NCBI GenBank assembly: GCA_036231405.1
Contig: JAZAHK010000006.1
Coordinates: 126,812-190,811, forward strand
Direction of reading: 5' to 3'
DNA: 64,000 nt
Source of the DNA: Nitrospinota bacterium
GTDB lineage: Bacteria; UBA8248
The position numbers and the translations under genes are program-made. Positions 3,048 through 54,984 of this stretch are shown here, piece by piece. A model generated the notes under the pieces. The model was not told the origin of the DNA, ran no database searches, and saw only the letters and a list, made by a program, of their open reading frames with translations. Each line of letters opens with the position of its first letter. Position 1 is the first letter of the stretch.

Positions 3048-3148
3048 TTTTTTGCCTTATAAAAACATAAAAAAATACCTTACGACATTCTATACCAGGA
3101 AAAACTTCAAGGCATCTTGAAATGTAAATTTGAAACCCTTTGTACATA

Positions 3149-9042: not shown

Positions 9043-9061
9043 TCAAAAACCTCCAATAAAA

Positions 9062-9388
9062 TTATCCGCCTAAATATTGTCCCATTAACATAATCAAATC
9101 ACCATTTTTAACTTTACTGTTTAAATTGTGTTCTATTCCAAGCAAAGCATCGTTAACTACAATTTCTATGTGTTCAGCAAGTTCGGAAGACCCTCTATCC
9201 CACAATGCATCATCAAGTGCCTTATAACGAGTACTTAGGCCCTTTAGAACAGAAAAAACAGTAGCACCTTCTACGATAGGTTCTTCAAAAACCTTGCGGC
9301 TACTTCCATCTCCACCAACGAAAGTGTTAGCCCAAGCCACTAGTTCAACTTTCACACTAGCGTCTGTTACTGAAGAATTAGACATCAT
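9062..9388 (-). CDS. MoaD/ThiS-family sulfur-carrier-like protein (AorD-like)
   Basis: 108-aa ORF with a C-terminal GG. It sits 16 nt downstream of the AOR gene on the same strand. Confidence 0.55.
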   Translation of the reverse strand: MMSNSSVTDASVKVELVAWANTFVGGDGSSRKVFEEPIVEGATVFSVLKGLSTRYKALDDALWDRGSSELAEHIEIVVNDALLGIEHNLNSKVKNGDLIMLMGQYLGG

Positions 9389-9404
9389 CGGGAAAATCTC
9401 AAAA

Positions 9405-11291: not shown

Positions 11292-11305
11292 AACTAATTC
11301 CTCAT

Positions 11306-12628: not shown

Positions 12629-12630
12629 AA

Positions 12631-13116
12631 CTAGCTCACCTCCAAAACAAGAGGACCACTTGGGCCTTTTGAACGATCATTAGCAAAACTTCCAATCCAA
12701 TCGGAATTCGCGTCAACCTCTACATACTCAATAGCTCCAGTAGGGCAAACCTTTTGACAAGCAGGATTTCCACCACATAAATCACATTTAAATGCCTTAT
12801 GAGTTTCTGGATCAAAGAAAATCGTGCCATAAGGGCAGGCAATGGTACAGAGCTTACAGCCTACACAAAGATCATCTTTGATTTCTTTTGCCTCGGATGA
12901 AGATATAGAAATTGCTTCTATTGGACAAGCAGTCATACACCATGCTTCATCACACTGAGGACAAGTATAAGGAGCGTAACTTGTATGATTCTCGAACGCA
13001 GAAACTCTAATAACTGATTTAGAAGGTCTAAATGTTCCTGTTTGCTCATAAGAACACGCTAATTCACATCGCATACAACCAGTACATTTTTGGGGAATTA
13101 TTTTTAAGACCTTCAT
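12631..13116 (-). CDS. 4Fe-4S ferredoxin-type electron-transfer subunit with four cluster motifs (AorA-like)
   Basis: Four Cx2Cx2-3Cx3CP motifs are present. The ATG at 13116 (MKVLKII) is preceded by GGAGA; the ORF track start at 13149 adds 11 residues. Confidence 0.75.
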   Translation of the reverse strand: MKVLKIIPQKCTGCMRCELACSYEQTGTFRPSKSVIRVSAFENHTSYAPYTCPQCDEAWCMTACPIEAISISSSEAKEIKDDLCVGCKLCTIACPYGTIFFDPETHKAFKCDLCGGNPACQKVCPTGAIEYVEVDANSDWIGSFANDRSKGPSGPLVLEVS

Positions 13117-13237
13117 AGAATCTCCGGATTGGAATGAAACAAAAAACACAAACGATTATAGGAAATAGACAAAAATATTTCAAACAATTCACCTTAAAAG
13201 ATGGTGTTTAAGGTTTTTTTCTACATGAAAAAAAATT

Positions 13238-14128
13238 TTAGCTCCCTGAACTGACCATGAGGGCTCCTGCAATTGCAATTACAGCACCTAGAATTACTTG
13301 AAAAGATAGGCGTTCAATTTTTTTAAAGAACAACCAAGAAACAAAAATCACAAAAACCAAAGAAAGTCTTCTTATGGGAAATACTTCAACAATATTTCCA
13401 TTCTTAATACTTGTCCAAAATGTTAACCCTGTCATTATATTAAATAAACCCGCTAGAGACATAGTGATTACGGCTTTTTTGTGCCAAGAAAAACTTATGA
13501 AATTTTCTTCCTTTTTCCCTAAGAATATTGAAACAAAACATTGACAAATGATCGCAGCACATGATGCGATTGCAATTCCCAAAGATGCACAAGGAATATA
13601 TGAAAAAGCTAGTTTTCTAAAGGTTGGAGAAAAAGAGAAAAACATCGCACTTATAACCGGCAGGAAATAATAAAATGATTTTGCAATTTTATTTTTCCCT
13701 CTAGCTTCATGGACCAAAATCATCCCGCCGAAAACAACTAGTATTGTCCCTATGGCAATCGAAGTATTAAGTTTTTCTCCAATGAATAAAATTGCAACTA
13801 TAGAAGACCAAATAGGAGCTGTTTGATAAAGAGTCTGGGTCCTTGCAAGACCAATTTTTGAATACGAAATATTATTAAAATGCCGCGCTATAAACTGTGC
13901 AAAAAGACCAGATAACGAAAAGAAAAGTACTCCTTTAAAAGACAGTTCATAATATCTCCCTTCTAAAAGGTAAACGGCGAATGCAAGACAACCGACAACA
14001 AAATTGGCCGCAACAGTTACCTCTTCTGGCCTTAAAAAACGAACCGCCTGTCTGTAGAAACTCTGTGCTATAGACAACAACATCGCAGAAATGAGAGCCA
14101 ATAGATTTGGATGGATCAAATCTAACAA
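13238..14128 (-). CDS. DMT/EamA family transporter
   Basis: 296-aa polytopic membrane protein with duplicated five-TM halves typical of EamA. Confidence 0.55.
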   Translation of the reverse strand: MLDLIHPNLLALISAMLLSIAQSFYRQAVRFLRPEEVTVAANFVVGCLAFAVYLLEGRYYELSFKGVLFFSLSGLFAQFIARHFNNISYSKIGLARTQTLYQTAPIWSSIVAILFIGEKLNTSIAIGTILVVFGGMILVHEARGKNKIAKSFYYFLPVISAMFFSFSPTFRKLAFSYIPCASLGIAIASCAAIICQCFVSIFLGKKEENFISFSWHKKAVITMSLAGLFNIMTGLTFWTSIKNGNIVEVFPIRRLSLVFVIFVSWLFFKKIERLSFQVILGAVIAIAGALMVSSGS

Positions 14129-26228: not shown

Positions 26229-27278
26229 CTAAAAAGATTTAAGCTTTTCTCTAGCCTTTTTAGAGGCATCTGAAGAAGGGAACCTTATAATAAGTCTTGA
26301 CAACAATTCTCTCGCACTCGCCCTATCACCAAAATTCAAGTAAGACATTGCTTCATAAAAAATAGAATCAGGCACCATATCCCCCTTTGGATAGTCTACT
26401 TGTACCTTACTGAAACCTAGAATAGCTTGTTCAAAACTTTTTTTAATATAAAAAATCTTCCCGATCCAAAATTGGGCATCATCAGAAAGAGTGTGATTAG
26501 GATATTTATTCAAGAAATTCTCGAAAAGAACACGTGAACTGTTTAAACTCTTACCGTAACGATAGAATCGGACAGCATTCTTAAATTCGATCTCTGCTTG
26601 AGAAAGTGTTTTTTTAGCTGAGACAATTTTCGAGTTATTTTTTTTTGCCACACTACCGATTTTTTTATTTAAAACTAAAGATTTCCCAACAGGAGCAAGT
26701 TTCTGATCTGGTTGACCAACTAGAAGGGATTCTCTCTTTCCATTTTTGTTTAAAGAACCTTTATATCCATAGGGTATTTTTTGTTTTAAGATTTTTGTCA
26801 GTTTTTGTTTCATTTCTTTCAACTCACTTAACAAAATTTCATTTTTTTTCTTTAGAAATAAAATATCATCTGCCAGTTTCTTTTCTCTTTTTTTTGTTTC
26901 ATTTTTATATTCAATAAAATCCCTTTTGAACGAATGCAAGGATTCAGATAATCTTTTTGACTCTTTTTTCTGATTTTTACTTAAACTATTTACATTTTCT
27001 TTTATTTTAAAAATTTCTTGATTTTTGGAAAAAGAATCTGATTCCGAACGAATTAATTTTGATAGTGACGAATCGATTGGAAGTACATTTTTTTTTAATC
27101 TAATTTTTTTCTGTACTGCTATTTCTGGCCCTACCTTCTTTTTCTTAGGAATTAAGGTTTCTCCGACAACTGGGGAACTTAATTGAAACCCAGGCTCGTC
27201 ACACCCTGCCATGAGAACGCAAAGAGAAGTCAAATATAGTATTGATTTTAAGTAATTATAAGGATAGAAATTCATCAT
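26229..27278 (-). CDS. cpoB: Tol-Pal system protein YbgF/CpoB (signal peptide, long coiled coil, C-terminal TPR)
   Basis: Lies last in the tolQRAB-pal order. The C-terminal TPR-like region and a Lys/Glu-rich coiled coil are present. Confidence 0.7.
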   Translation of the reverse strand: MMNFYPYNYLKSILYLTSLCVLMAGCDEPGFQLSSPVVGETLIPKKKKVGPEIAVQKKIRLKKNVLPIDSSLSKLIRSESDSFSKNQEIFKIKENVNSLSKNQKKESKRLSESLHSFKRDFIEYKNETKKREKKLADDILFLKKKNEILLSELKEMKQKLTKILKQKIPYGYKGSLNKNGKRESLLVGQPDQKLAPVGKSLVLNKKIGSVAKKNNSKIVSAKKTLSQAEIEFKNAVRFYRYGKSLNSSRVLFENFLNKYPNHTLSDDAQFWIGKIFYIKKSFEQAILGFSKVQVDYPKGDMVPDSIFYEAMSYLNFGDRASARELLSRLIIRFPSSDASKKAREKLKSF

Positions 27279-27339
27279 AAAAAAACTCCCCAGATTTAAT
27301 CTAGGGAGTCCTTATTGAACTAAGCGACATAAAGCATAC

Positions 27340-28008
27340 TTAATTTAAACCAGAAGGTATTCCACCAATAACATTGGATTTCGCTCGACGATTCTTCGAC
27401 CAGGCAGACTCATCGTGTCCTGAATCAGCTGGACGTTCCTCTCCATAACTAACCGTGTCTATTCTTGATGCATCAACACCAAGAGAAACTAGATAATCCT
27501 TTACAGCCTGAGAACGACGATGTCCTAGTGCAATATTATACTCAACAGTACCTCTTTCGTCGCAATGACCTTCTATCTGTACAAGCAGGGTGGGGTTATT
27601 TTCCATAAAACGTGCATTCGTATCTAAAATTGAACGCATTGCAGGCTTTATGTCCGACTTATCAAAATCAAAATAAATAGGGGAATCCTCAAATCTTGCT
27701 AAATCTTTTTTAAAACCAGAACGTCTAGCCTCACGCTCGTTTTCAGGCATACTTCCACTACTTCCACTACTTCCACTACTTCCACTACTTCCACTACTTC
27801 CACTACTTCCACCTTCGGAGCCTCTCATTTTGGTCTTCATAGAGGAAGCGGAACTTGAACCATCAGAGGTCTTCTTTGCAAGATCTTCAGATGCACAGCC
27901 AACGAAAAATAAGAAAGCAGCTAAGACTACAAAAAACGGAAAACGAGAAACAGAATAAATCGAGTACATAATACCCCCTTGCAGTCCCCCAATTAAATAT
28001 GTAACCAC
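27340..28008 (-). CDS. pal: Peptidoglycan-associated lipoprotein Pal (OmpA family) with (SGS)n linker
   Basis: Has a lipobox (VGCAS), the OmpA_C motif [12 protein letters not shown], and sits directly after tolB. Confidence 0.85.
27751..27813. repeat. Perfect 9-bp tandem repeat (ACTTCCACT x6 plus one variant copy), encoding (SGS)n inside pal
   Basis: Read directly from the sequence; it is a coding VNTR that preserves the frame. Confidence 0.9.
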
Positions 28009-28116
28009 ATAAGAAATTTAAAAGAAATTACAAACACGTCCTTGATTATATGATTATAAATTGCTTAGAGCAACCCTTTTTAAGTACAACAGTGTATTCA
28101 ATAAAAAAACTTCTTT

Positions 28117-29463
28117 TTATCGAGGTAATGGCGCCCAATCTGGTTCTTGACCAGGTTGTAGTTTCTTTAACTGTGTTCCTGAATCAGTCATAGTATAAAC
28201 ATACTTTCTGCCTTCACGATCAGATGAAAATGCAATATGTCTTCCATTGGGAGACCAAGTTGGAGACTCATTTCTTCCTTGACTACCAGTGAGTCTTCTC
28301 ACACCAGAACCATCCGGGTTCATTGTAACGATATCAATTTCTTTACCCCTTTTAACTCTACCAGTATAAGCAATTTTATCTCCCTTAGGACTCCAAACAG
28401 GTTCTGTATTATAATTGCCACTAAAAGTGATTCTATTTAAATTAGTTCCATCAGAATTCATCACATAAATATGAGGATTCCCATGTCGACTACTATTGAA
28501 AACAATTTTTCTCCCATCTGGTGAATAAGAAGGGGAAACATCAATTCCCCAACTATTCGTTAATCTTCTCTTGATTCTTCTAAATAGATCGTAACGAACT
28601 AGCTCATAATTAGGACGTCTTTTCCCAATTAACTGGGAATATATAAAAAACCTACTTGTAGGATTCGCAGGTGAGAAAGATCCACCAATTGCCTGAGCCT
28701 TCCTAGAACTGACTCGTAACTGTCTTCCTCCATTAGTTGGAATTAAAAAAACTCCTGGAGGATTTGTTTTAAAGGATGAAAAAGCCAACCACTTGCCATC
28801 CGGGGACCAAGAAGGTGCATTATTACCCCTCCGATTTCTTGTAATCCTCCTCAGATTAGTACCATTCCAATTCATAATAAATATAACACCCTTTTCTTCT
28901 ATTGAACGTCTAGATACAAATGCTATTTCTGTATCAAATATCCCCTTATCTCCCGTAAACCTTTCATAAACTTCATTTGCAAAACGATGGGCTATAGAAC
29001 GCCAATTGCTTATACTATCTTGCTTGTACCATTTATTTAATATGCTTCTTTTACGAAAAACATCGAAAAGGCTGAAATTGACTCTAATTCTTTTGCCTTT
29101 TATACGAACAGAACCTTTAACTAGTGATTGCACTTTAATAATTTTTTCCCAATTACGAAACTTTAAACATCTCTTTTCTATGCATTGTCTTGAAGGACTT
29201 TCTAGATAACCTTTTCGGTCTGGTATATAAAAAAGACCCGTTCTTTCTAAATCTTCTTGAACGAGTTCTGAAATTTTCAACCCAATGTTGTTTTTTCGAT
29301 AATTCATAGGTTTTAATTCAGAAATTGCTATACGAATCTTACGAACTCTAGAAGAAAAAATATCTAAATACACACGTTTTTTCGCGTAACACTCAGATGT
29401 AAAAAAATGAAAATAAGAAAATGTAAAAAAGACAATTAGACAAAAAAGAAGTAATTTTTTCAT
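28117..29463 (-). CDS. tolB: Tol-Pal system beta-propeller protein TolB
   Basis: Repeated PSWSPDG, PSYSPDG and PTWSPNG blades follow a TolB_N-like N-terminal region; the ORF is 448 aa. Confidence 0.9.
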   Translation of the reverse strand: MKKLLLFCLIVFFTFSYFHFFTSECYAKKRVYLDIFSSRVRKIRIAISELKPMNYRKNNIGLKISELVQEDLERTGLFYIPDRKGYLESPSRQCIEKRCLKFRNWEKIIKVQSLVKGSVRIKGKRIRVNFSLFDVFRKRSILNKWYKQDSISNWRSIAHRFANEVYERFTGDKGIFDTEIAFVSRRSIEEKGVIFIMNWNGTNLRRITRNRRGNNAPSWSPDGKWLAFSSFKTNPPGVFLIPTNGGRQLRVSSRKAQAIGGSFSPANPTSRFFIYSQLIGKRRPNYELVRYDLFRRIKRRLTNSWGIDVSPSYSPDGRKIVFNSSRHGNPHIYVMNSDGTNLNRITFSGNYNTEPVWSPKGDKIAYTGRVKRGKEIDIVTMNPDGSGVRRLTGSQGRNESPTWSPNGRHIAFSSDREGRKYVYTMTDSGTQLKKLQPGQEPDWAPLPR

Positions 29464-29490
29464 TCCTTTTATATCTTCTCCATTTTAAAC

Positions 29491-29796
29491 TTAATCTTTA
29501 CAAAAACCTGTTCCACAAAAACGAAAACCAGTCGGAATCATTTTATCTTTAATAGTCTCTGGAAACTTCGGGACAAGCGGGTCAAAAGCACGAAGAATAG
29601 CATTTTTTGCAGATAGATCATACGTCTTATTTCCACTTGATTTTTTTATTCTAAGCTTACGATAACGACCATTTCTATAAATATCTACGTCAAATGTAAC
29701 TCTAAGTGATGAAATTCCTGGAATAGGTGGAAATTCGGTAAAACTACTAATTCTAGATGTTAAAACTCCATAATATCTTTCTATAGCAGAGTTCAA
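29491..29796 (-). CDS. tolA: TolA C-terminal (TonB_C-like) domain ORF, in frame with the upstream tolA segment across a TAG
   Basis: Contains LRVTFDVDIYRNGRYRKLRIKKSSGNKTYDLSAKNAILRA, TonB/TolA domain III-like. The open frame extends upstream through a Gly-rich linker to the TAG at 29944-29946. Confidence 0.6.
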   Translation of the reverse strand: MNSAIERYYGVLTSRISSFTEFPPIPGISSLRVTFDVDIYRNGRYRKLRIKKSSGNKTYDLSAKNAILRAFDPLVPKFPETIKDKMIPTGFRFCGTGFCKD

Positions 29797-29943
29797 ATTC
29801 CCGATACCACCAGTTCTCGGTTGTTTACTTCCGCCGCCCTGTCCATCTCCTCCCCCTTCTCCTAGATATCCAACCTTTGGCCGAATTGGAGAGGACTTTC
29901 CATCAGAAGTTTTGCCTATTTTTTCACTCTGCTCAAATTTAAA

Positions 29944-30654
29944 CTATTTTGATTTTTTTGTATTTTTTTTCTCATTTCTTATTCTCTTCAGATATTTCTT
30001 CCTATAGGCTTGATATCTTTTTTGACCGGAATTTACTTTCTTCTTTATTCTTCTACGTTTCTTCTTCTTTCTAATTCGTTTCTTCTTTCTAATTGGTTTA
30101 CGTTTCTTCTTCTTTCTGATTCGTTTCTTCTTTGTAATTGGTTTACGTTTTTCTGAAAGAGCTTGAATCTTCTTTTTAGTTTTAATTTTTTTCAGACTTT
30201 TTACTTCAATTTTTTTGACTTTCTTTTTTTTCACAGGAGAGATAACTCTCACCTTTTCTTTATTTTTTGTTATCCGTTTGGTGAGAGTTTTTCGATTTCT
30301 CTTGAAAACAGTCTTCTTGACTAATGGTTTTTCTATCTCAATTTTTTTTTGTTTAACCGGAATAATATCGCCTGATTTTCCCTTCGCAGAACCTCCTGGT
30401 ATTTCGTCCGCCCCTATAAGGCTGACGGCAGTTCCACTTCCGTAAAAACGATATTCTGTTTCAGTGCTAAATATAAAAACCCACAAAAAAATGACTATAT
30501 GTATTAAAAAAGATGATAGAAAAGAAATTCTAAAGGAAAACTTCTTATAGATTTGATCCTCGTTTGAGGTTACAAGCTGACTTCTCTCCGATTGGATGAA
30601 CGAATCTTTCGGGCTTTCATTATCAGGGTCTTTTATTGGAAGGATTTCACTCAT
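29944..30654 (-). CDS. tolA: TolA N-terminal segment (TM anchor plus Lys-rich helical domain II), ending at an in-frame TAG
   Basis: TM helix FLSSFLIHIVIFLWVFIF followed by a highly basic repeat region. It occupies the tolA position between tolR and tolB. Confidence 0.6.
   Translation of the reverse strand: MSEILPIKDPDNESPKDSFIQSERSQLVTSNEDQIYKKFSFRISFLSSFLIHIVIFLWVFIFSTETEYRFYGSGTAVSLIGADEIPGGSAKGKSGDIIPVKQKKIEIEKPLVKKTVFKRNRKTLTKRITKNKEKVRVISPVKKKKVKKIEVKSLKKIKTKKKIQALSEKRKPITKKKRIRKKKKRKPIRKKKRIRKKKKRRRIKKKVNSGQKRYQAYRKKYLKRIRNEKKNTKKSK
30055..30144. repeat. Two near-identical 45-bp tandem units (plus a partial third) inside tolA, encoding KRKPIxKKKRIRKKK repeats
   Basis: Units 30055-30099 and 30100-30144 differ at 2 positions. 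Confidence 0.8.
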
Positions 30655-30687
30655 TTCAGACCTAAATCAACAACTAAACAAAATTGT

Positions 30688-31122
30688 TTATTTTCTAGAT
30701 TTTTTCCTTTGCGGAGGCTCAGTTACCATACTTATTTTTTTTATCCCAGAAGACCGTATCAAATCCATTACGATCATGACATTTCCATAAGAAATTATTC
30801 TGTCAGCCCTTAAAAAGATTTCTTTTTTACTTCTCGAGGCAAATAAAATCTCTAGTTTCTTTTTTAACTCTGGTTGAGGAATTTCATTGTCATTTAGATA
30901 TACGATTCCTTGTTTATCAATAGAAACAATTACAGCTGTCTCTGTCATATTCGCTTTTTGTCCAGTCTTCACCTGAGGCAAATTCAAATTTATAGATTCA
31001 TTTTTCGTTTCCAAAAGTGGTGCCGTAACCATAAAAATAACTAAAAGCACCAACATAACATCAACTAGTGGGGTAACATTGATGTCAGACAGAGTAGAAT
31101 TTTTATTCAGATTAATCGCCAA
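30688..31122 (-). CDS. tolR: Biopolymer transport protein TolR (ExbD family)
   Basis: Contains INVTPLVDVMLVLLVIFMV and is 144 aa. Confidence 0.85.
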   Translation of the reverse strand: MAINLNKNSTLSDINVTPLVDVMLVLLVIFMVTAPLLETKNESINLNLPQVKTGQKANMTETAVIVSIDKQGIVYLNDNEIPQPELKKKLEILFASRSKKEIFLRADRIISYGNVMIVMDLIRSSGIKKISMVTEPPQRKKSRK

Positions 31123-31146
31123 AAAAACCCTTTCTTACAAAATGCA

Positions 31147-31830
31147 CTAAAAATGTCTTTGAACTAGATTTAAAAAATCAGAAATAAAATTTTCCATCTC
31201 ATTGGTAATAACTTTAATACGATTTTGGTAGTGATTATAAGCAATTACAGCTGGAATCGCAGCAGCTAAGCCCAATGCAGTTGCAACAAGTGCTTCGCTA
31301 ATTCCTGGAGCTACAACAGCCAATCCAGCTGAACCCTGAAGCCCAATATCTCGAAAAGCATTCATAATTCCCCATACCGTACCAAAAAGACCTATAAATG
31401 GAGTTGCACTCGCTGTGGTGGCAAGAAAGGTAAGTAGTCTCTCAAGATTTCCAATTTGTTGATTTGCTGAGCGGTGAAGCGCGCGTTCTACACTTTCGAT
31501 ACCACTTAATTCAAAAGATCCACCACTGGATAGACCATTTTCCGTATCCTCTTTGCTAGAATCCATTAATTGTTTGGTTTGACGAAATCCAGCTAGAAAA
31601 ACCTCTCCAACCGGACTATCAGAAAAATCCTTAAAGGATTCATAAAGTTGATTTAAAGATTGAGACTTCCAAAAATAATCTAAGAATTCATAGGAAAGCG
31701 ATTTCGCTCTCCTCAACTCAAAATATTTCCAAATTATGATTGACCAAGAAGTAAGCGAAAAAAATAAAAGAATAAGCAAAACAAAAAAAACGACACCACC
31801 AGAACCAATCGCATGGCTTAAAAAATCCAT
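31147..31830 (-). CDS. tolQ: Tol-Pal system protein TolQ (MotA/TolQ/ExbB proton channel)
   Basis: Three-TM ExbB-like protein. The ATG at 31830 (MDFLSH) is preceded by GGTGATGGA; the ORF track start at 31929 adds 33 residues with no homology. Confidence 0.8.
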   Translation of the reverse strand: MDFLSHAIGSGGVVFFVLLILLFFSLTSWSIIIWKYFELRRAKSLSYEFLDYFWKSQSLNQLYESFKDFSDSPVGEVFLAGFRQTKQLMDSSKEDTENGLSSGGSFELSGIESVERALHRSANQQIGNLERLLTFLATTASATPFIGLFGTVWGIMNAFRDIGLQGSAGLAVVAPGISEALVATALGLAAAIPAVIAYNHYQNRIKVITNEMENFISDFLNLVQRHF

Positions 31831-32043
31831 TCCATCACCACTAGAACCCGTAACCGATTTATTTATTACTGTAGATGCATAAAGAAAGTTCATTAGATTT
31901 AAAAACATCCTTAAAGGCAGAGGAACCAAGTATTACCCAATTTTTAGACTACAGTCAATACAAACGATTTAATGATAAATAATTGACAGAAAAGATACTC
32001 GACATGGATAATGGTATCTGCATTTTGGAGGATTTCAAAAATT

Positions 32044-33210
32044 ATGACTGCACAAATAAAACAAGAAGTAATTGATTACATTGATTCAATAAGCAAAGAA
32101 ATTTGGGACTTGTCGATAGAATTACATAAAAACCCTGAACTGAGCTTAAAAGAGCATAATTCTAGTGAAATATTATGCAATTACCTTTTGAAACATGGGT
32201 TCAAAGTACAAAGAGGATTAGCTAACTTGCCTACCGCATTTTTAGCAGAAAATAAAAGCATAAAGAAACGTAAAATTGGATTTGTCTCTGAATATGATGC
32301 ACTACCAGAATTAGGTCATGCCTGCGGTCATAATATTATTGCTATGGCAAGTATTGCTGCCGGAGTCTCAATCAATAAAATTTTTGGCGGTAAATTTTGT
32401 CAGATAAAAATCTTTGGGACACCAGGAGAAGAAAGCGGAGGTGGAAAAGTATTAATTGCTAAAGGTGGTCACTTTGACGGAATAGACGCGATTATGATGA
32501 TACATCCTTCCAATGAGACAAGAGTAAACGTAAACTTCCTTGCATTAGCAGAAATCGAGATAGAATTTACAGGCAAAAGTGCACATGCATCTGCATCTCC
32601 AGAGGATGGATTAAACGCCCTAGATTCTATAATTGCAACATTTAATTCAATTAGTGCACTTAGACAACATTTACCTAAAGGGGATAAAATTCATGGTATT
32701 ATCACAAGTGGCGGGAGTGCCCCCAATATTATTCCAGAAAAAGCCTCTGCAAAATTTTATTTAAGAAGTTTAACAAATCAGGGTCTTAAGAATGTTACCA
32801 AACGTTTTATAGACTGTGTAAATGGCGCGGCCATAGCAACTGGGACAAAATCAAAAATATATAAAAATCCTATCAGTTATTTTCCCCTGAAACAAAACAA
32901 GACACTCTGTTCCGTTTTTCGTGCAAACCTTTCTCAACTCGGTTTGAACGAATCTATTGACTTGCCTCCAATAAAAATGGGGTCTTCTGATATAGGAAAC
33001 GTTAGCCAAGTCGTTCCTACAATACACCCACAAATTCAAATGGTAGACGAGGAAATCAATGCCCATACAAAAGAATTTGCTTCTGCTGCAAAAAGCAATT
33101 CAGGTAAAAAAGTATTGTTTTTAGGGGCAAAAGCGATGGCCATGACGGCTTTAGATATTTCAATTGACTCTTCTCTCCTCAGAAAAATTAAATCAGAATT
33201 TAAATCATGA
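32044..33210 (+). CDS. M20D-family amidohydrolase (aminoacylase/hippurate hydrolase-like)
   Basis: Contains GHACGHNII. The ATG at 32044 is preceded by GGAGGA. Confidence 0.8.
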   Translation: MTAQIKQEVIDYIDSISKEIWDLSIELHKNPELSLKEHNSSEILCNYLLKHGFKVQRGLANLPTAFLAENKSIKKRKIGFVSEYDALPELGHACGHNIIAMASIAAGVSINKIFGGKFCQIKIFGTPGEESGGGKVLIAKGGHFDGIDAIMMIHPSNETRVNVNFLALAEIEIEFTGKSAHASASPEDGLNALDSIIATFNSISALRQHLPKGDKIHGIITSGGSAPNIIPEKASAKFYLRSLTNQGLKNVTKRFIDCVNGAAIATGTKSKIYKNPISYFPLKQNKTLCSVFRANLSQLGLNESIDLPPIKMGSSDIGNVSQVVPTIHPQIQMVDEEINAHTKEFASAAKSNSGKKVLFLGAKAMAMTALDISIDSSLLRKIKSEFKS

Positions 33211-33217
33211 GGAAAAA

Positions 33218-35386
33218 ATGTACTTGATTTCTATGAATTTTAATAAATTCTTTTTACTTTTACTCTTATGTGCTTTTGCTTTTACACACAATGCAAATGC
33301 AAATCTAAGAGAAACCAGTGATTCTACACCCGAGTTTCTGTCAAATAAGATACTTCTTAATTTAAAAAATAAAAAATATAAGAAAGTAGTGCAAATACTT
33401 AAAGAAAAAAATGATTTAAGCGAACGAGAAAATTTTCTAATAGGATTTGCATTATTTAAAACAAATAATTGCAAAGATGCTGTTCAATATCTAAAACAAG
33501 TAGGAAAAAAGGAAAATTTACTAAAACCCTATGGAATGTTTTTTTTAGGAAAGTGTTACCAAGTGATAAAAAACAATCCTTCCGCAATAAGGATTTATAA
33601 AGAAATTATCAATAAGTACCCTCATTTTATCTTTGCCAAAAAAATTCAAACTGACTTAATTTTACTTTTTATTAAAGAGAAACAGTATGGTCTTGCTATT
33701 AGAATCATTGACAATTTTGATAAAAATAGAATTTCCAGCAAACTACTCTCTGACAAAGCAAATTCCCACGAAAAAAGAGGTGAAATTAAAAAAACAATAG
33801 AAACATGGCGTAAAATATGGCTTTTCTTTCCTCATAAAATTGAAGCTAAAAAAGCTTACAAAATATTAAGAGAGAAAAAATCTTTTAGAATAAATCCTTT
33901 TACAGAACAACAACTTTTTCAACGAGCAAAAACTTTACGACGCAAGTATTTTTTTAAAGAATCACTTCACCAATTAGATGAAATAGTCAAAAAATTTCCA
34001 AAAACAAAATTACTGAAAAAAATTGAATTTTATAGAGCTTTTAATCTTTTTTCTCTTAGGAAAACAAAAGATGCGAGGCTATCTTTTCAAAAAATTATAA
34101 ATTCAGGAAAAATCTCTGCTTTTAAAAAATCAAAAATTCGTTTTTATCTATCGAGGAATTATTTAAGAGAAAGAAACAGAAAAGCTTTTGAAAATGAAGC
34201 TGCTCTTATATTGAAAGAAACACCAAAAAGTTCATGGGCTAAAACAACTCTATATTTACTTGCTAGAGTGCATCAAGATGAATTTCAAGATAAAAAAGCA
34301 AAATCTTTTTATAAAAAATTATTATTAGAATTTCCAGATCCAAAATTTATTGAAAAGTCAAAACGACAACTGGCCTGGATAAATTTTCGTGCAGAAAAAT
34401 ATTTAAAAGCATTGAAGGGATTTAAAGAAGTAATTGCAATATCTAATAGAAGGGAATTAGTTTCTTCTTCATTTTTTTGGGCTGGTATCTCATCTGAAAA
34501 AACTAATAACTTCGAATTAGCGATTCAATTTTTTCAAAGATGTATAAATAGATATAGAAGAAACTACTATGGACATCTTTGTTTAGATCGTCTTTTGAAA
34601 TTGCAAAAAAAAGTAGGTTTGAAAACACTAATTGTAGACCCTCTTAAAAAGAGCAATTTAAATCGTTGGTTTGAACGACCAGAAAAGTCAATTAAAAATA
34701 AATCATTCTATATAGCAAGAACTTTCTCATCTATTGGTCTTCATAAATTTGCTGCGGAAGAGTATAAAAGAAGCGGAAAACATCGATACTTTAAATTTCA
34801 AGCCGCAAGATCTTACTATTTATCAGATGAAAAAAATAAAGCATTAAGAATCATTTTCCGTTCTTTCAATAAAATACTTTATTCTGGCGGAACAAATATT
34901 CCAAATGAATTTTGGAATATTGCGTATCCGATTGAAAAATTAAAAAATAAACCAAAAAACACTGATGTCTACTTATTGCACTCAATTATTAAGGCTGAAA
35001 GTCTTTTCGATCAATATGCAATATCTCCCGCCGGCGCAATTGGAATGATGCAACTTATGCCTAAAACTGCACGAAGAGTATCGAAAAAATACGGAATAAA
35101 ATTTAAATCAAAATTTGATTTATTTGATTCAACTATCAATAAACAAATAGGCGCACATCATATGCAAGATTTGTTAAAAACATTCAAAGGAGAAATTGTT
35201 CCTGTTATAGCTAGCTATAATGCTGGGAGATCAGTGGTTTTAAGATGGTGGAAAAATAGAAAAAATGAATCCATCGAGGTTTTTATAGAACAAATACCTT
35301 ATATAGAAACTCGAAAGTATGTAAAAAAAGTTTTAGGTTATTATAGAGAATATAAAAATATTTATTCAAAAAAGGCAAATCAATAA
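33218..35386 (+). CDS. Soluble lytic murein transglycosylase (Slt-like; superhelical N-domain plus C-terminal SLT domain)
   Basis: A signal peptide begins at ATG 33218. The C-terminal motif is AESLFDQYAISPAGAIGMMQLMP. Confidence 0.8.
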   Translation: MYLISMNFNKFFLLLLLCAFAFTHNANANLRETSDSTPEFLSNKILLNLKNKKYKKVVQILKEKNDLSERENFLIGFALFKTNNCKDAVQYLKQVGKKENLLKPYGMFFLGKCYQVIKNNPSAIRIYKEIINKYPHFIFAKKIQTDLILLFIKEKQYGLAIRIIDNFDKNRISSKLLSDKANSHEKRGEIKKTIETWRKIWLFFPHKIEAKKAYKILREKKSFRINPFTEQQLFQRAKTLRRKYFFKESLHQLDEIVKKFPKTKLLKKIEFYRAFNLFSLRKTKDARLSFQKIINSGKISAFKKSKIRFYLSRNYLRERNRKAFENEAALILKETPKSSWAKTTLYLLARVHQDEFQDKKAKSFYKKLLLEFPDPKFIEKSKRQLAWINFRAEKYLKALKGFKEVIAISNRRELVSSSFFWAGISSEKTNNFELAIQFFQRCINRYRRNYYGHLCLDRLLKLQKKVGLKTLIVDPLKKSNLNRWFERPEKSIKNKSFYIARTFSSIGLHKFAAEEYKRSGKHRYFKFQAARSYYLSDEKNKALRIIFRSFNKILYSGGTNIPNEFWNIAYPIEKLKNKPKNTDVYLLHSIIKAESLFDQYAISPAGAIGMMQLMPKTARRVSKKYGIKFKSKFDLFDSTINKQIGAHHMQDLLKTFKGEIVPVIASYNAGRSVVLRWWKNRKNESIEVFIEQIPYIETRKYVKKVLGYYREYKNIYSKKANQ

Positions 35387-35389
35387 ATC

Positions 35390-36592
35390 ATGCTAAGGCC
35401 AAAAAGAACAATTAACGCAATAGGATTAATGTCTGGGACATCTACAGACGGGGTTGATGTAGTATGTATTGAAATAAACTCTAAAAAAGAAACAAAACTA
35501 GTTGCTTTTGAATCTTATCCATATCCTAAAGAACTAAGAATTAGATTATTAGCCATTGCAAACAATAACGAAACAACAGCCGCAGAAATTAGCTCTCTTC
35601 ATGTTGAACTTGGCGAATCTTTTGCGAATGCAGTTCTAAGTTTAACCTCCAAACATAATATAGAAAAACTTGATTTAGATTTTATTGGGAGCCACGGCCA
35701 GACAATTAGCCATGTTCCTAAAGGAGGAACTGGGAACTATGGAATTATTTATCCTTCTACATTTCAGATAGGAGATCCTTCTGTAATTTCTGAACTAACG
35801 GGAATAACAGTGATTTCGGACATGCGGTCAAGAGATGTTGCAGCAGGGGGAAGTGGAGCTCCTTTAACCCCATGGGCACACGAAAAACTTTTTAAAAACA
35901 AAAATCACCCTTCAGCTTTTTTAAATTTAGGAGGAATTGCAAATATTACCTACATTCCACAAACTGATGAGGCAGATCTTTTTGGATTTGATTGTGGACC
36001 TGCAAACATGGTAATTGACAGGTTAATTTCTCTATTTACCAGAGATAAAAAAAAATTTGATCATGAAGGGAAAATAGCAGGCAAAGGGAAAATTAACAAA
36101 AAAGAATTAGACCGGTTGTTGAAAAACCCTTATCTTTCTTTACCACTTCCAAAAAGTACAGGTAGTGAGGATTTTGGAAAGGAATTTACTGAGAAATTAA
36201 TGACTCATTTTCAATCAAAAAAAATGAATATAAATGACATCTTAGCAACTTCTACTGCTTTTACAGCGGAAACAATTTATCAATCAATAGTTAAGTACTT
36301 TCCCCAAGAAAAACCAATTAAGGAGTTAATTGTCGGAGGGGGAGGAGTAAAAAATAAAACACTAATGTCCTTTTTAGAATCAAGGTTAAAACCGATCTCT
36401 ATTATCTCTTCAGAAAAAAAGGGATTCCCTCATGATGCGGTTGAAGCTGTTTGTTTTGCGCTGTTAGGTTGGGGAACTCTATCAAATACTCCTTCAAATG
36501 TTCTGGCATCTACTGGAGCAAAATCAGAAGTAGTTCTCGGAAATATAACTCCTGGATTAAATTTTAAAAAACTTTATGACCTTAAATATTGA
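35390..36592 (+). CDS. anmK: Anhydro-N-acetylmuramic acid kinase
   Basis: N-terminus GLMSGTSTDGVDVV; the ORF is 400 aa. Confidence 0.9.
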   Translation: MLRPKRTINAIGLMSGTSTDGVDVVCIEINSKKETKLVAFESYPYPKELRIRLLAIANNNETTAAEISSLHVELGESFANAVLSLTSKHNIEKLDLDFIGSHGQTISHVPKGGTGNYGIIYPSTFQIGDPSVISELTGITVISDMRSRDVAAGGSGAPLTPWAHEKLFKNKNHPSAFLNLGGIANITYIPQTDEADLFGFDCGPANMVIDRLISLFTRDKKKFDHEGKIAGKGKINKKELDRLLKNPYLSLPLPKSTGSEDFGKEFTEKLMTHFQSKKMNINDILATSTAFTAETIYQSIVKYFPQEKPIKELIVGGGGVKNKTLMSFLESRLKPISIISSEKKGFPHDAVEAVCFALLGWGTLSNTPSNVLASTGAKSEVVLGNITPGLNFKKLYDLKY

Positions 36593-51093: not shown

Positions 51094-51122
51094 TTGAACT
51101 AAGCTCTATTTCTGTTTATAAT
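51094..51122 (+). promoter_or_regulatory. Near-consensus sigma70 promoter (TTGAAC-17-TATAAT) with AT-rich, A-tract-containing upstream region
   Basis: Hexamers and spacing read directly; it lies 32 nt upstream of the ORF at 51154. Confidence 0.5.
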
Positions 51123-51153
51123 CAAAGACGTTTTAGAAATATTTCATTGTTTT

Positions 51154-52611
51154 TTGCATTCCGCCGCTAGAGAAAAACAAATGAAAAATTTAAAAAGGGA
51201 TCTTTTTTCCCTACTTTCACTAGCAAGTAATGCAACGGAAGCCTATACAGCATGCCTATTCCTAGAGAACAGAAGAAAAGACAAATTTCAGTTAGTTTCA
51301 GTTCATAGTCTTAGCCCACATATTATAGTTGATGCATCAATAGAAACAGGACAAGGTTTTCTTGGATGGGTATTAGAGAATAATGAGCCACTAAGCGTAA
51401 ATCAATTTGATAAAGACACTATAACACTAGGATATTACAGTCGTCACGAAAACATAAAATCATTTATGGCTACCCCTTTGATGAGTAAAAAAACAAGGGG
51501 GGCATTGGCTATAGACAGTAAAAAATCCTGGGTTTTCACAAATAAAACACAAAAGATCATTACAGGGTTCGCTCAACAATTTGCTTACATCGTAGAAGAA
51601 GCACTTTTATCTGCCGAAAAAGAAAAGAAAATGATAGATTTATTCTCTTTTTCAGATTATTTAAATACTCTCAGAATTTGCAGAACAGAAGAACAATTAT
51701 TTGAAAACATATGTAGAGTACCAAGGGAAATAATCCCCTCCGATTCCTGCTTCCTCGTATTGGTTGACGGGGAAGCAGGACGACCTTACTTAGCAAACGC
51801 TTTTGGATTTGACGAACTTTTCTTAGGTAAAATTAAGATACACCCATATCGTAGCATCAGCGGACATGTCATGAAAAAAAACGAATCCTTACGTTTAACA
51901 GACATCAGGGGTGCAAAAGGGAACCAAGCACTTTTCGATCCAGACGAGCCCTCTTTAGATGCACGTTCTGTGATTGCGATACCGCTTTGCGATAATGACA
52001 AAACTTTTGGGGTATTAGGTTTTACAGGAAAAAGGAGAAATCAATTTCAGTCTTTTCTTGTTAAAAGATCAGAAATCATCGGAGAAATTATTTCTGATAT
52101 GATAAAAAAAATTCAATTAGAAAAAAACATAAATACAAAAAAATCGTTTAATACTCAGGCTAATGAGGAAGATGAATTTAACTTGAGGAGACATTTAGAG
52201 GAAATACTTCCTGAACGAAAAAAAACCGGTAGACAAGTATCACTTTTAACGATTTCTGCAAAAACAGGTTTAGACTCTGATATGGAAGGAGATGAAATTA
52301 AAAGTGAAGATATATCACAACACTTGTGGTCTATTCTTAGCGCTTTCAATAAATCAGGAGATATTCTCATGAAGAAAGACAAAAACTGTTTGTTGCTCCT
52401 ACTAGAAAACTCCTCTCAAGAGTACGCGGAAACAATCGTAAAAAGAATTACAAAAATAATAAATAGTTCTTTTTGTCAAGCTGGAGAAAACGACCATGAA
52501 GTGAAAGCTATAGTTGGAACTGCAACTTTTCCACACGATGCACAAGGCCCAGATTCACTAATTTCTGCATCAATTAGATCCTATGAACATTCGGAGATAG
52601 AACTTGATTAA
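51154..52611 (+). CDS. GAF domain protein with C-terminal degenerate GGDEF-like domain
   Basis: Two GAF-like segments are followed by a C-terminus that is GGDEF-like by eye but has no GG(D/E)EF motif (KKDKN at the expected position). The start could be the ATG at 51181. Confidence 0.55.
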   Translation: MHSAAREKQMKNLKRDLFSLLSLASNATEAYTACLFLENRRKDKFQLVSVHSLSPHIIVDASIETGQGFLGWVLENNEPLSVNQFDKDTITLGYYSRHENIKSFMATPLMSKKTRGALAIDSKKSWVFTNKTQKIITGFAQQFAYIVEEALLSAEKEKKMIDLFSFSDYLNTLRICRTEEQLFENICRVPREIIPSDSCFLVLVDGEAGRPYLANAFGFDELFLGKIKIHPYRSISGHVMKKNESLRLTDIRGAKGNQALFDPDEPSLDARSVIAIPLCDNDKTFGVLGFTGKRRNQFQSFLVKRSEIIGEIISDMIKKIQLEKNINTKKSFNTQANEEDEFNLRRHLEEILPERKKTGRQVSLLTISAKTGLDSDMEGDEIKSEDISQHLWSILSAFNKSGDILMKKDKNCLLLLLENSSQEYAETIVKRITKIINSSFCQAGENDHEVKAIVGTATFPHDAQGPDSLISASIRSYEHSEIELD

Positions 52612-53671
52612 AATATTTCAAGAAAAAATTTCAAATTCAAGCAAACTCACAAAAGTATTTGGCTCTTTAATCGGGGAAAAAATAGCTATGGACCTCGGTA
52701 CCGCTAACACGCTTGTATACACAAAGGAAAAAGGGATAGTCGTAGACGAGCCATCTTTTGTAGCTCTGAATACCGAAAATGGAAATTCTATATTAGCAGT
52801 CGGGCAACGAGCAAAAGAAATGTTTGGAAGAACTGCTAGTAAAATTAAAACAATACGGCCAATGAAAGATGGAGTTATAGCAGATTTTGATGTTACAAAA
52901 GCAATGATTAAATATTTCATCAAGTCCGTAATCCCACAAAAAAAATTCACAAAACCAACTATTATGGTTTGCGTTCCTGCTGGCATAACAAGTGTCGAAA
53001 TGAAAGCGGTTATAGATTCTGCACTTCAATGTGGCGCTGGGAAGGTACATCTTATAGAAGAACCAATGGCGGCGGCAATTGGGAGCAAGCTTCCAATCCA
53101 TGATATTTCTGGTTCTATGATTATTGATATTGGCGGCGGGACAACTGAAGTAGCGGTAATAACCCAATATTCAATAGCGTATTCAGAATCTCTTAGAATT
53201 GCAGGTGATACAATGGATGAATGTATTCAGAAACATTTGAAAAGAGAGCACGGACTTCGAATAGGTCCATTTGAAGCTGAAAAGGTTAAAATATCGATTG
53301 GTTCTGCCGTTCCTCTTGCGAAAAAACTTGAATGTGAAGTCACTGGCAGTGATATTTCAACTGGAATACCTAAAACTGTTCTTATGAACGATGGAAATAT
53401 TCGAGAGGCTTTAGGAAGCCCACTAAAAGCAATAGTGGATTCCATCAAAAAAGCATTATCAAAAACGAGCCCTGAACTTGCAACCGATATAAGAAGAAGG
53501 GGTGTTGTTCTTGCTGGCGGAGGTTCATTACTCAAAGGGCTAGGGACAAGACTTCACCAAGAAACAAATCTTCCAATCTATCGTGTCAAGGATCCTTTGA
53601 CAGCAGTTGTTCGTGGCACAGGATTTGTTCTAGATAATTTTAAAAATTTAAATCAAGTTTGCTTGAATTAA
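52604..53671 (+). CDS. mreB: Rod shape-determining protein MreB
   Basis: Contains MDLGTANTLVY, DIGGGTTEVAVI and GGGSLLKGL. The TTG start at 52604 overlaps the upstream stop by 8 nt. Confidence 0.9.
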   Translation: MIKIFQEKISNSSKLTKVFGSLIGEKIAMDLGTANTLVYTKEKGIVVDEPSFVALNTENGNSILAVGQRAKEMFGRTASKIKTIRPMKDGVIADFDVTKAMIKYFIKSVIPQKKFTKPTIMVCVPAGITSVEMKAVIDSALQCGAGKVHLIEEPMAAAIGSKLPIHDISGSMIIDIGGGTTEVAVITQYSIAYSESLRIAGDTMDECIQKHLKREHGLRIGPFEAEKVKISIGSAVPLAKKLECEVTGSDISTGIPKTVLMNDGNIREALGSPLKAIVDSIKKALSKTSPELATDIRRRGVVLAGGGSLLKGLGTRLHQETNLPIYRVKDPLTAVVRGTGFVLDNFKNLNQVCLN

Positions 53672-53687: not shown

Positions 53688-53726
53688 AGCCGGAGATTTA
53701 CGTTATGATTAAGTGAGTTTCCGGCT
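53688..53726 (+). terminator. GC-rich hairpin (AGCCGGA / TCCGGCT, 25-nt loop) downstream of mreB; weak terminator candidate
   Basis: Stem read from the sequence; there is no clean U-tract. Confidence 0.2.
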
Positions 53727-53794
53727 CACATTATCTTAAAATTTTACTTCTTTAAAAAACAAAATTAGATTACCATCTAGCAACATGCATTAAA

Positions 53795-54073
53795 ATGGAG
53801 ACATATATGACTTTCAATATTCAAGAAAATAAAATATCTATGTTAGCTAGTTTAGACGAAATGAAACTAGTTTACAGAGTCCTTCACAAACATATCACAG
53901 AAAATCTAGAACTGATGGATTCTACGTTTTTGGAAAACTTGCAATCATCACTTCAAGAAAAAGCTCAAGAGGAAGGTATTGATATTGGACATCATATGGC
54001 CTGGGATCAGTGGTTGGGTAACGAATCCCCAATATCCTGTGAAGAGCGTGTAAAAAAAAGAAAACAATTTTAA
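53795..54073 (+). CDS. Hypothetical small protein (92 aa)
   Basis: ORF only; it is convergent with the sigma-like gene and overlaps it by 4 nt. Confidence 0.3.
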   Translation: METYMTFNIQENKISMLASLDEMKLVYRVLHKHITENLELMDSTFLENLQSSLQEKAQEEGIDIGHHMAWDQWLGNESPISCEERVKKRKQF

Positions 54074-54984
54074 GAAATTACCGGATTTTGACATACAATA
54101 TTTCGAAACAAATGCCCATCCATATACCATTTTAAAGAACAAATAAACTTTTCATCTGCTAAAAACAATATAACTGCGGATCGAGACCATTCAGAATTAT
54201 TGTCTGATCTAGACCATACCAAAAAACCGAAACAACCATTCAATTCAATTAAATCAAGGTGAAGAATTTTTCCAGATTTCTTCAAGAGTTCTAAGCAAGC
54301 TGTAGAAACAAATTCATTCCCTGTTCTTTTTTCTTCACTTACCACTAGTTCGACATCATTGAGAAAAATCTTTTCAAGAAGAACTCGATTTCTAGACCGT
54401 AGAGCACTTAGAAATTCCTTAATTAACTGATCAGTTTTTACACTTCCATTAGAGTCGGGGAAAGGGATATTTTTTTTCCACTTATTAAAGATTAAGGAAT
54501 ATTGTTTTTTGCTGTCTTCAAGAATTTCCAAAACCTTTCTTTCTTCAATTTCCAGAATCTCTGAAGAAAGAGAAATATAATCATTTTTAAAATAATTTTT
54601 AAGAACTAAAATTAGACGTTCTTCAAAATTCATATATTGCAAAAAAAACAAAAATTCAAAAGATGTTTCAATATTCAAATTTTTCATAGAGGAAACTTGT
54701 TCCTTATAGTCCTCTTGTAGAAAAGGAGCAAAATCAGGGAAATCAAATTCATAGAGAGGCAATGCAGTTTTATCCCTATTTCTTTTCCTTGAATGTTTAG
54801 CTATTTCTACCATAAACCACTTATAAATATCTAATTGTGAATCTGTTGAATTAGAATCTTCAATTGATAATAAAACAACTTCTTGGACAATATCTTCTGC
54901 ATCAAAGAGGTTTAAGTTAAGAGTAAACGAAAATTCCCTCATTAAACTGTCATGAGAAGATAAAAATTCTTCCAAATCAAACAT
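54070..54984 (-). CDS. ECF-type sigma-70 family protein with about 130-aa C-terminal (NTF2/SnoaL-like?) extension
   Basis: DAEDIVQEVVLLSIE resembles sigma region 2.1-2.2. KWFMVEIAKHSRKRNRDK resembles region 2.4. FEERLILVLKNYFKNDYISLSSEILEIEERKV resembles region 4. Confidence 0.4.
   Translation of the reverse strand: MFDLEEFLSSHDSLMREFSFTLNLNLFDAEDIVQEVVLLSIEDSNSTDSQLDIYKWFMVEIAKHSRKRNRDKTALPLYEFDFPDFAPFLQEDYKEQVSSMKNLNIETSFEFLFFLQYMNFEERLILVLKNYFKNDYISLSSEILEIEERKVLEILEDSKKQYSLIFNKWKKNIPFPDSNGSVKTDQLIKEFLSALRSRNRVLLEKIFLNDVELVVSEEKRTGNEFVSTACLELLKKSGKILHLDLIELNGCFGFLVWSRSDNNSEWSRSAVILFLADEKFICSLKWYMDGHLFRNIVCQNPVIS

Follow-up and report, generated by a model that had tools for sequence, protein, structure and literature searches.

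Conserved linkage of mreB to a gene for a tandem-GAF protein with a degenerate GGDEF domain in Nitrospinota and other bacterial lineages

The 64,000-nucleotide (nt) stretch of DNA analyzed here (hereafter the window) covers positions 126,812 to 190,811 of contig JAZAHK010000006.1 from a Nitrospinota bacterium (GTDB lineage UBA8248; assembly GCA_036231405.1). It contains a gene for a protein with two GAF domains and a degenerate C-terminal GGDEF domain, directly followed on the same strand by mreB. The two genes form a conserved gaf-mreB bicistron, and the GAF protein is probably an undescribed partner of MreB, judging from comparative sequence evidence. We estimate a probability of about 0.6 that it is a non-catalytic, sensor-type regulator or adaptor acting directly on MreB. 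Each domain type is already known; what is new is a broad, undescribed family of MreB-linked sensor-type proteins, and searches of the literature brought up no publication in which a GAF protein is linked with MreB.

The linkage was examined from both sides. With MreB as bait, a scan covering a single genome for each GTDB species yielded 63 loci. Wherever a Nitrospinota locus had upstream DNA (some of these loci are labelled “Tectomicrobia” or only “bacterium”), the GAF gene lay directly upstream of mreB; three Aquificota metagenome-assembled genomes (MAGs) showed the same order, and approximately 18 Caldisericota loci were without the GAF gene. The GAF–mreB linkage was invariant in approximately 45 genomes. 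Metagenomes were scanned with the GAF-family profile as bait, and the best 80 of 228 relatives were kept. Among these, mreB was the next same-strand gene in 69/69 informative loci; the 11 uninformative loci either had at most 212 nt left after the GAF stop codon (five loci) or had the GAF gene cut by the contig end (six loci). The linked loci included relatives only 24–33% identical to the window protein, on contigs of 34–70% G + C content, and the source names of distant members included Nitrospinae, Candidatus Tectomicrobia, Deltaproteobacteria, Desulfothermus sp. and Desulfomicrobiaceae. Individual look-ups recovered the order GAF then mreB in Nitrospinota, “Tectomicrobia”, Desulfothermus and Desulfomicrobiaceae. 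The synteny in related genomes that the initial annotation of this locus had proposed as a check was therefore found in both the genome and the metagenome loci.

The genes around the pair vary, with ompA-like, MBL and NUDIX genes in the window, proS and either ispG or an inositol monophosphatase gene in loci of the Desulfovibrionia type, and nth in Aquificota. The GAF–mreB pair is the only constant, and its neighbors change by lineage. Chance adjacency was ruled out by this two-way linkage in variable contexts. Subfamilies of the GAF protein, defined by the variant at the GGDEF site, coincided with clades of a neighbor-joining (NJ) tree of MreB, which shows that the two genes were co-inherited. 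At the level of sequence comparison, the invariant linkage is strong evidence for a shared function. When the family profile was run against 1.84 billion representatives, giant multi-GAF proteins dominated the result, and approximately 21 full-length single-stretch members stood among the top 150.

In the three Aquificota MAGs (L044–L046; e.g., 8610–9947 and 9944–10987 in L044), the relative is 445–446 amino acids (aa) long, with a first GAF domain at 33–39% identity and a shortened C-terminal domain. Its stop codon overlaps the mreB start (GTGATG or ATGATG), and a convergent gene, taken by eye as endonuclease III, lies after mreB. The Aquificota loci suggest that the association is ancient or that the pair was transferred long ago.

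In the window, both open reading frames (ORFs) of the initial annotation are present on the forward strand, at 51154..52611 (485 aa) and 52604..53671 (355 aa, mreB), each counted from TTG; the G + C content along the window is approximately 31–41%. The first start is misplaced. All homologues of the GAF protein begin with MKNL or MTNL in the alignment, and an in-frame TAG replaces the window TTG 51154 in two close relatives (L006 and L071), so the true start is ATG 51181, 27 nt downstream, giving 476 aa. An NCBI protein model from a Nitrospinota MAG (P0001) is likewise 476 aa and 100% identical to the window protein. The features of the pair are as follows.

51094..51122, +, sigma-70-type promoter, TTGAAC-17 nt-TATAAT, matching 10/12 consensus positions; the best promoter-like site in the region
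51123..51180, +, 5' leader of the operon, mostly invariant in 6/6 relatives and containing TTG 51154
51181..52611, +, tandem-GAF/degenerate-GGDEF gene, 476 aa (Pfam, family profile, structure model, Foldseek and P0001)
51181-51630, +, GAF1, aa 1-150, part of the GAF gene
51673-52140, +, GAF2, aa ~165-320, part of the GAF gene, with a helical linker after it
52156-52608, +, degenerate GGDEF domain, aa ~326-476, part of the GAF gene
52378..52392, +, lost GG(D/E)EF site, D-K-N-C-L, aa 400-404, from alignments
52593..52596, +, GGAG, Shine-Dalgarno-like motif for mreB within the 3' end of the GAF gene, 7 nt before TTG 52604
52604..52611, +, 8-nt overlap TTGATTAA of the mreB TTG and the GAF TAA; the same junction occurs in L005, L006 and L007
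52604..53671, +, mreB, 355 aa (Pfam, NCBIfam and structure matches)

The junction reads gaacTTGATTAAaat, in which the mreB TTG (52604) and the GAF stop codon TAA (52609-52611) overlap by the 8 nt originally reported. Between the preceding in-frame stop and the conserved DLGTANT motif of MreB, no standard start codon other than TTG 52604 occurs. GGAG(A/T) also precedes the ATGA junctions of relatives, where the two genes mostly meet tightly, by ATGA overlaps, by overlaps of 8, 14 or 28 nt, or across gaps of a few nt (3–4 nt in the MreB-baited loci). The overlap and the Shine-Dalgarno-like GGAG fit the translational coupling suggested earlier, and tight junctions recur in the relatives. The overlap of the two codons probably fixes the ratio in which the GAF protein and MreB are translated.

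The near-consensus promoter of the initial annotation lies 58 nt upstream of the corrected start. Promoter-like sites are not in excess in the region (13 found against 12.7 expected from shuffles). Six clade members share both hexamers and the larger part of the ~58-nt leader without a change, and the A/T-rich DNA farther upstream is divergent; the promoter is taken as real because of this conservation of the hexamers and not from the site count. Rfam gave zero matches in the window or in the conserved leader, which may be a regulatory leader.

Two GAF domains were found in the window protein by strong matches, each in two stretches, to Pfam GAF_2 (E = 3.7e-20, 73 bits, cut-off 28.6) and Pfam GAF (58.9 bits, cut-off 22.4), placing it among the GAF proteins (PF13185/PF01590/PF13492) with two copies. 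Among the GAF models of NCBIfam, the one of PtsP comes closest (E = 1.2e-8). The GGDEF match of the window protein alone was sub-threshold in Pfam (E = 0.006, 16.8 bits against a cut-off of 23.8). Used against the PDB, the family profile matched GGDEF domains end to end over positions 320–478 (5m3c, E = 8.7e-23; DosC, E = 2.1e-21); it also found bona fide GGDEF proteins without a GAF domain. Relatives at 49% identity carry PF00990, and a distant member (L091) matches Pfam GGDEF with E = 3.9e-33. Because of PF00990 in the relatives, the matches to GAF-less GGDEF proteins and the whole-domain match to solved diguanylate cyclases, the C-terminal domain is identified as a GGDEF homologue. The domain content first proposed is in this way supported for both GAF and GGDEF, the latter through the family profile.

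An AlphaFold2 (AF2) model built with 35 homologues had a mean predicted local distance difference test (pLDDT) score of 82.7 and was confident within domains. It gave the order GAF, helix, GAF, long helix and alpha/beta domain, with both GAF domains of the alpha/beta GAF type. The top Foldseek matches of the model were PadC, the tandem GAFs of PDE2/5/6, CyaB2 and DcsbIS. No transmembrane segment was seen in the GAF protein by eye.

As the initial annotation had claimed, the GGDEF-like site is destroyed. DKNCL replaces GG(D/E)EF in the window protein, and NTQANEEDEF and LLTISAKTG stand at the positions of DxLTGLxNRR and D-x-D-x-FK-x-x-ND; the substrate and metal motifs, including the metal-binding Asp and the guanine-binding motif, are lost. 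The DxLTG and D-x-D-x-FK motifs are partly kept only in deep relatives such as L063, L091 and L095. The site variants of relatives include EGPRF, GGDRF, LGRRF, SGGHF, DQARF, YGDRF, GSNQF, SEESF and GHDTF, and a decay series can be drawn from GDDEF (L095) through GGDRF (L063), YGD(R/K/V)F, SGGHF, LGRRF, EGPRF and DQARF to DKNCL. The catalytic Glu of the fourth position is missing in all variants but the GDDEF of L095, and the window protein lacks the motifs of an active diguanylate cyclase. At the I-site position, five residues upstream of the GGDEF site, the window has KSGD, not RxxD. RxxD is sporadic only (RDGD in P0007 and L035), and the family does not have the motif pattern of a degenerate cyclic di-GMP (c-di-GMP) receptor.

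Besides GDDEF, the L095 protein (2680–4176) keeps the D-x-D-x-F...N...G...G motifs upstream of it, and with this motif content it may still bind nucleotides or be active.

In members of 307–356 aa (Desulfovibrionia type) the GGDEF domain is wholly absent and the mreB linkage is kept. This short GAF-GAF form adjoins mreB in L097–L104, L136 and L148–L151 (e.g., 8001–8975 in L148), from Desulfothermus, Desulfomicrobiaceae and similar contigs. An inositol-monophosphatase gene usually comes next after mreB in these loci, and in Desulfothermus a DUF6485 gene lies upstream, its end abutting the GAF start.

Conservation is concentrated at the other end of the protein. Among 59 diverse members, the all-pairs identity was 42.6% for GAF1, 24.0% for GAF2 and 23.6% for the degenerate GGDEF domain, the least conserved part. 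The invariant residues are nearly all in GAF1 (HSLS, Y86, E90, I92-K93-x-F95, D112-S-K114, F119-T120 and K125), and two motifs from it, [IV]D[ST]K[KR]x[WY][VCS]FT and E[DNE]IK[SA]F[ML]A, provide a signature for annotating the family. The window protein and most members have a remnant of the NKFDE motif, N68...Y86-x3-E90, at nearly invariant positions; this motif alone is not predictive of a ligand. Because the GGDEF remnant is poorly conserved and is absent in the mreB-linked short members, the partnership would depend on the tandem GAF, and on GAF1 above all. The earlier stress on the GGDEF-like domain was accordingly misplaced; on the conservation data, the N-terminal GAF1 is the conserved core of the proposed partnership. 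The family offers a clean case in which a GGDEF domain decays and finally disappears while the remainder of the protein stays functional.

The window MreB matches Pfam MreB_Mbl with 420 bits over profile positions 2–326 of 327, NF010539 with 433.4 bits (cut-off 293) and TIGR00904 with 425.6 bits (cut-off 365.75). Its structure matches include the Caulobacter (4cze, 330 bits) and Thermotoga (1jce, 329 bits) proteins. It is 50% identical to Caulobacter MreB, within the 50–58% range of the GAF-linked MreBs, which are 45–60% identical to each other across lineages and 68–93% identical within Nitrospinaceae. By these comparisons the window MreB is an orthodox MreB, and the GAF-linked MreBs are not like divergent paralogues. 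The protein has a long N-terminal extension, amphipathic-looking by eye. Most GAF-linked MreBs have Met right before DLGTANT, encoded in the window by ATG 52688 (...AMDLGTANT); Ile replaces it in the unlinked Caldiserica, L066 and Caulobacter MreBs, with exceptions both ways. This internal ATG could make gene callers truncate the N-terminal extension.

The initial annotation had described mreB as standing alone, with no mreC, mreD, pbp2 or rodA downstream, and this holds in the window and in all related loci examined. Instead of continuing into a canonical mreB-mreC-mreD-mrdA-mrdB operon, mreB precedes an 88-aa ORF, beyond which lies a convergent gene. MreC, MreD, PBP2 and RodA had no Pfam match among the 30 larger ORFs at 6.3–44.6 kb or the ORFs at 48.7–55.0 kb, and tblastn with the Caldiserica MreC, MreD, PBP2 and RodA found nothing anywhere in the window. 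None of the four was found within 5–10 kb of any GAF-linked mreB examined. By contrast, the GAF-less Caldiserica loci have the order maf-mreB-mreC-mreD-PBP2-rodA (positive control L053), and the PBP2 query also found a homologue in the MAG L066. Two sets of candidates were rejected. The minus-strand ORFs at 7786–14128, guessed by size to be mreC-mreD-...-pbp2-rodA, were identified by Pfam as EamA transporters, ferredoxin, pyridine-nucleotide oxidoreductase, aldehyde:ferredoxin oxidoreductase and serine hydroxymethyltransferase, and the ORFs of 250–300 aa after mreB in distant loci, considered as MreC, were inositol monophosphatase, PdxJ or without a match.

Known proteins resemble the GAF protein in part. 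PelD of Pseudomonas aeruginosa is a c-di-GMP receptor composed of GAF and a degenerate GGDEF domain, and PopA is another degenerate-GGDEF receptor. CdgA is also a degenerate-GGDEF c-di-GMP receptor (PMC3271064). Like these three, the GAF protein has a cytoplasmic GAF part followed by a catalytically dead GGDEF domain kept as a regulatory or scaffold module. Unlike them, in which a conserved RxxD I-site binds c-di-GMP, the GAF–mreB family does not conserve RxxD and can lose the domain; it also differs from PelD, which is membrane-anchored and linked to Pel polysaccharide genes, in having two GAF domains and linkage to mreB. With PDE2/5/6, CyaB2, DcsbIS and PadC it shares two GAF-type domains, long helices and a C-terminal cyclase- or GGDEF-type domain, an architecture that signals as a parallel dimer; in PDE2/5/6, CyaB2 and PadC, whose fold it resembles, the signal passes along a helical linker. 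Those proteins have an active enzyme output on the same chain, whereas the output domain here is dead or missing, so any output must go to another protein. DmxA of Myxococcus xanthus is reportedly an active membrane-bound cyclase of TM-GAF-GAF-GGDEF architecture that is recruited to the division site. It is similar in having tandem GAF domains and GGDEF tied to a cell-cycle or morphogenesis machine, but DmxA is active, membrane-bound and part of the divisome, and the GAF–mreB family is predicted to be soluble, catalytically dead by motif and linked to mreB.

The known partners and modulators of MreB include RodZ and MreC/MreD as well as the inhibitors or modulators CbtA/YeeV, MbiA, AimB, YodL and YisK. 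Like them, the GAF protein has a genetic tie to MreB and would be expected to govern MreB assembly or its coupling to wall synthesis, and it shares an operon with mreB, as mreC and mreD do. To our knowledge, none of these partners has GAF or GGDEF domains, none is encoded upstream of mreB with an overlapping stop and start, and none occurs as a fixed pair with mreB in Nitrospinota, Aquificota or Desulfovibrionia.

A protein acting on MreB fits best because of the single promoter, the stop/start overlap with an internal Shine-Dalgarno-like motif, the two-way linkage, the co-inheritance and the nature of the protein, which is of a sensor type with neither an enzymatic nor a DNA-binding output. 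The GAF protein would be cytoplasmic and probably dimeric, as a parallel dimer by analogy with tandem-GAF regulators, and would be co-transcribed with mreB from one promoter. Its GGDEF domain is predicted to be no longer able to make c-di-GMP and may serve as a dispensable dimerization or scaffold appendage, while GAF1 would be the ligand-binding or MreB-contacting module. We infer interaction with MreB, ligand sensing and an effect on the filaments: a ligand in the GAF pocket would change the binding or release of MreB and so tune its polymerization, membrane association or coupling to and recruitment of the wall-synthesis machinery. A more specific version, in which a ligand gates the direct action of the tandem-GAF protein as regulator or adaptor of MreB and the protein represents a hitherto unrecognized, ancient partner class of Nitrospinota, Desulfovibrionia-type and Tectomicrobia-labelled lineages and some Aquificota, is advanced only tentatively, as somewhat short of an even chance.

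Several observations weigh against direct action on MreB. Gene neighborhood indicates a shared function, not physical contact, and no GAF–MreB fusion (~830 aa) occurred among the top matches of the profile searches. The 100% linkage from the GAF bait rests on the best 80 of 228 relatives. A minority of GAF–mreB loci have gaps of ~110–350 nt, so translational coupling is not universal. The strict NKFDE motif, N[KR]-x(n)-F-x3-DE, is present in 5/59 members, so no ligand can be named. Finally, if these genomes had a second mreB together with mreCD, the partner may serve a specialized and not a housekeeping MreB.

On the first of these points, the GAF protein and MreB could share a process such as envelope growth without contact, the GAF protein sensing a metabolite and acting on some other target (a peptidoglycan synthase or hydrolase, or the nucleotide pool). 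Operon linkage proves co-expression only, tandem GAFs usually regulate an attached or associated enzyme (the phosphodiesterases and cyclases among the Foldseek matches), and the stop/start overlap is missing in some loci. However, no other gene is consistently linked, mreB being always present while the neighbors change, and the short members are without an output domain; a protein partner would therefore be required, with MreB the only constant candidate. We consider action without contact unlikely. More doubtful again is that the GAF-linked mreB is a second, specialized paralogue for polarity, motility or intracellular organization, with a canonical mreBCD-pbp2-rodA elsewhere in the same genomes; the GAF protein would then serve an accessory cytoskeleton and not the elongasome. 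Such a paralogue would agree with the separation of mreB from mreCD in every GAF-linked locus, and three unlinked MreBs fall outside the GAF-linked ones in the thinly sampled NJ tree, which has too few unlinked sequences to decide on a separate GAF-linked clade. In a related species of Desulfovibrionaceae, mreB and mreC form a canonical pair, Dde_0996/0995 (PMC12579266), and paralogues could have escaped the MreB-baited scan, which relied on query-specific peptides. Nevertheless, the GAF-linked MreBs are as close to Caulobacter MreB as to each other, exceed the NCBIfam MreB cut-offs and are highly conserved within Nitrospinaceae (68–93%), and the scan recovered one mreB locus per genome.

It is very improbable that the GAF protein links c-di-GMP to MreB, whether as a diguanylate cyclase that is active, always or under some conditions, or as a PelD/PopA/CdgA-type receptor. 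The C-terminal domain is a true GGDEF homologue, clearly so in L091; L095 keeps GDDEF and its accompanying motifs, and a few members have R-x-x-D at the I-site. Against this, the catalytic Glu survives in no variant but that of L095; DKNCL in the window protein is accompanied by loss of DxLTG and of the metal-binding Asp, the family shows no conserved RxxD (the window carries KSGD), and whole lineages that keep the mreB linkage have no such domain. As a general role, an active cyclase or I-site receptor is largely excluded by the motifs, and the non-catalytic regulator or adaptor acting directly on MreB is the reading that we favor.

The region downstream of mreB contains the following features.

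53713..53729, +, weak hairpin GTGAGTTTCCGGCTCAC from the terminator-like scan, with a 7-bp stem and a poor T tail
53807..54073, +, conserved small ORF of 88 aa starting at ATG 53807, the third gene of the cluster and specific to the clade
54070-54984, -, convergent gene, 304 aa, the neighbor after the 88-aa ORF

Of the layout first described here, the small ORF and the convergent gene stand, but the hairpin is weak and not above chance when terminator-like sites are counted against shuffles. The 88-aa ORF lies on the same strand 125–275 nt after mreB in 49 Nitrospinaceae-type loci (39 distinct sequences), with the conserved core MKLVYRxLHxH..ExLELMD...LQxALQxKAQxEGVDIGHHxAWDLWLGN....PCEERVKKRK. 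It had zero Pfam or NCBIfam matches and was absent from the distant GAF–mreB loci of both scans; its product may be a clade-specific third component. The 304-aa protein has a weak, sub-threshold likeness to ECF-type (extracytoplasmic function) sigma factors (SigX4, E = 3.5e-7, 29.7 bits against a cut-off of 323), and its gene is a conserved neighbor of the cluster throughout Nitrospinaceae, at varying distance.

Elsewhere in the window, a Tol-Pal-type cluster (TolQ-like MotA/ExbB, TolB, OmpA/Pal-like and a TPR protein) lies beside a TPR-SLT lytic transglycosylase and the anhydro-MurNAc kinase AnmK (26229–31929, minus strand, and 33164–36592, plus strand). Envelope and peptidoglycan-recycling genes are thus near the pair, and elongasome genes are not. 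At 9405–13149 on the minus strand, genes for a tungsten-type aldehyde:ferredoxin oxidoreductase (AFOR_N, AFOR_C), a pyridine-nucleotide-disulphide oxidoreductase and a 4Fe-4S ferredoxin stand in a row. This module is anaerobe-style; the Nitrospinota lineage is known for aerobic nitrite oxidation.

How cells adjust MreB activity to their physiological state is poorly understood, and the modulators known to us are lineage-restricted toxins or membrane partners. Here, in several deep lineages of bacteria, a sensor-domain protein is genetically inseparable from mreB. If it acts as proposed, it would make the actin-like cytoskeleton, and hence elongation and shape, responsive to a metabolite or nucleotide signal inside the cell, and would fill the operon position that MreC and MreD occupy elsewhere. 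Nitrospinae are the main marine nitrite oxidizers. Their cell shape reportedly varies with growth stage and environment (PMC8026999). The GAF–mreB pair may help explain these growth-stage-dependent shapes, and it provides a testable entry point into signal-dependent control of rod growth.

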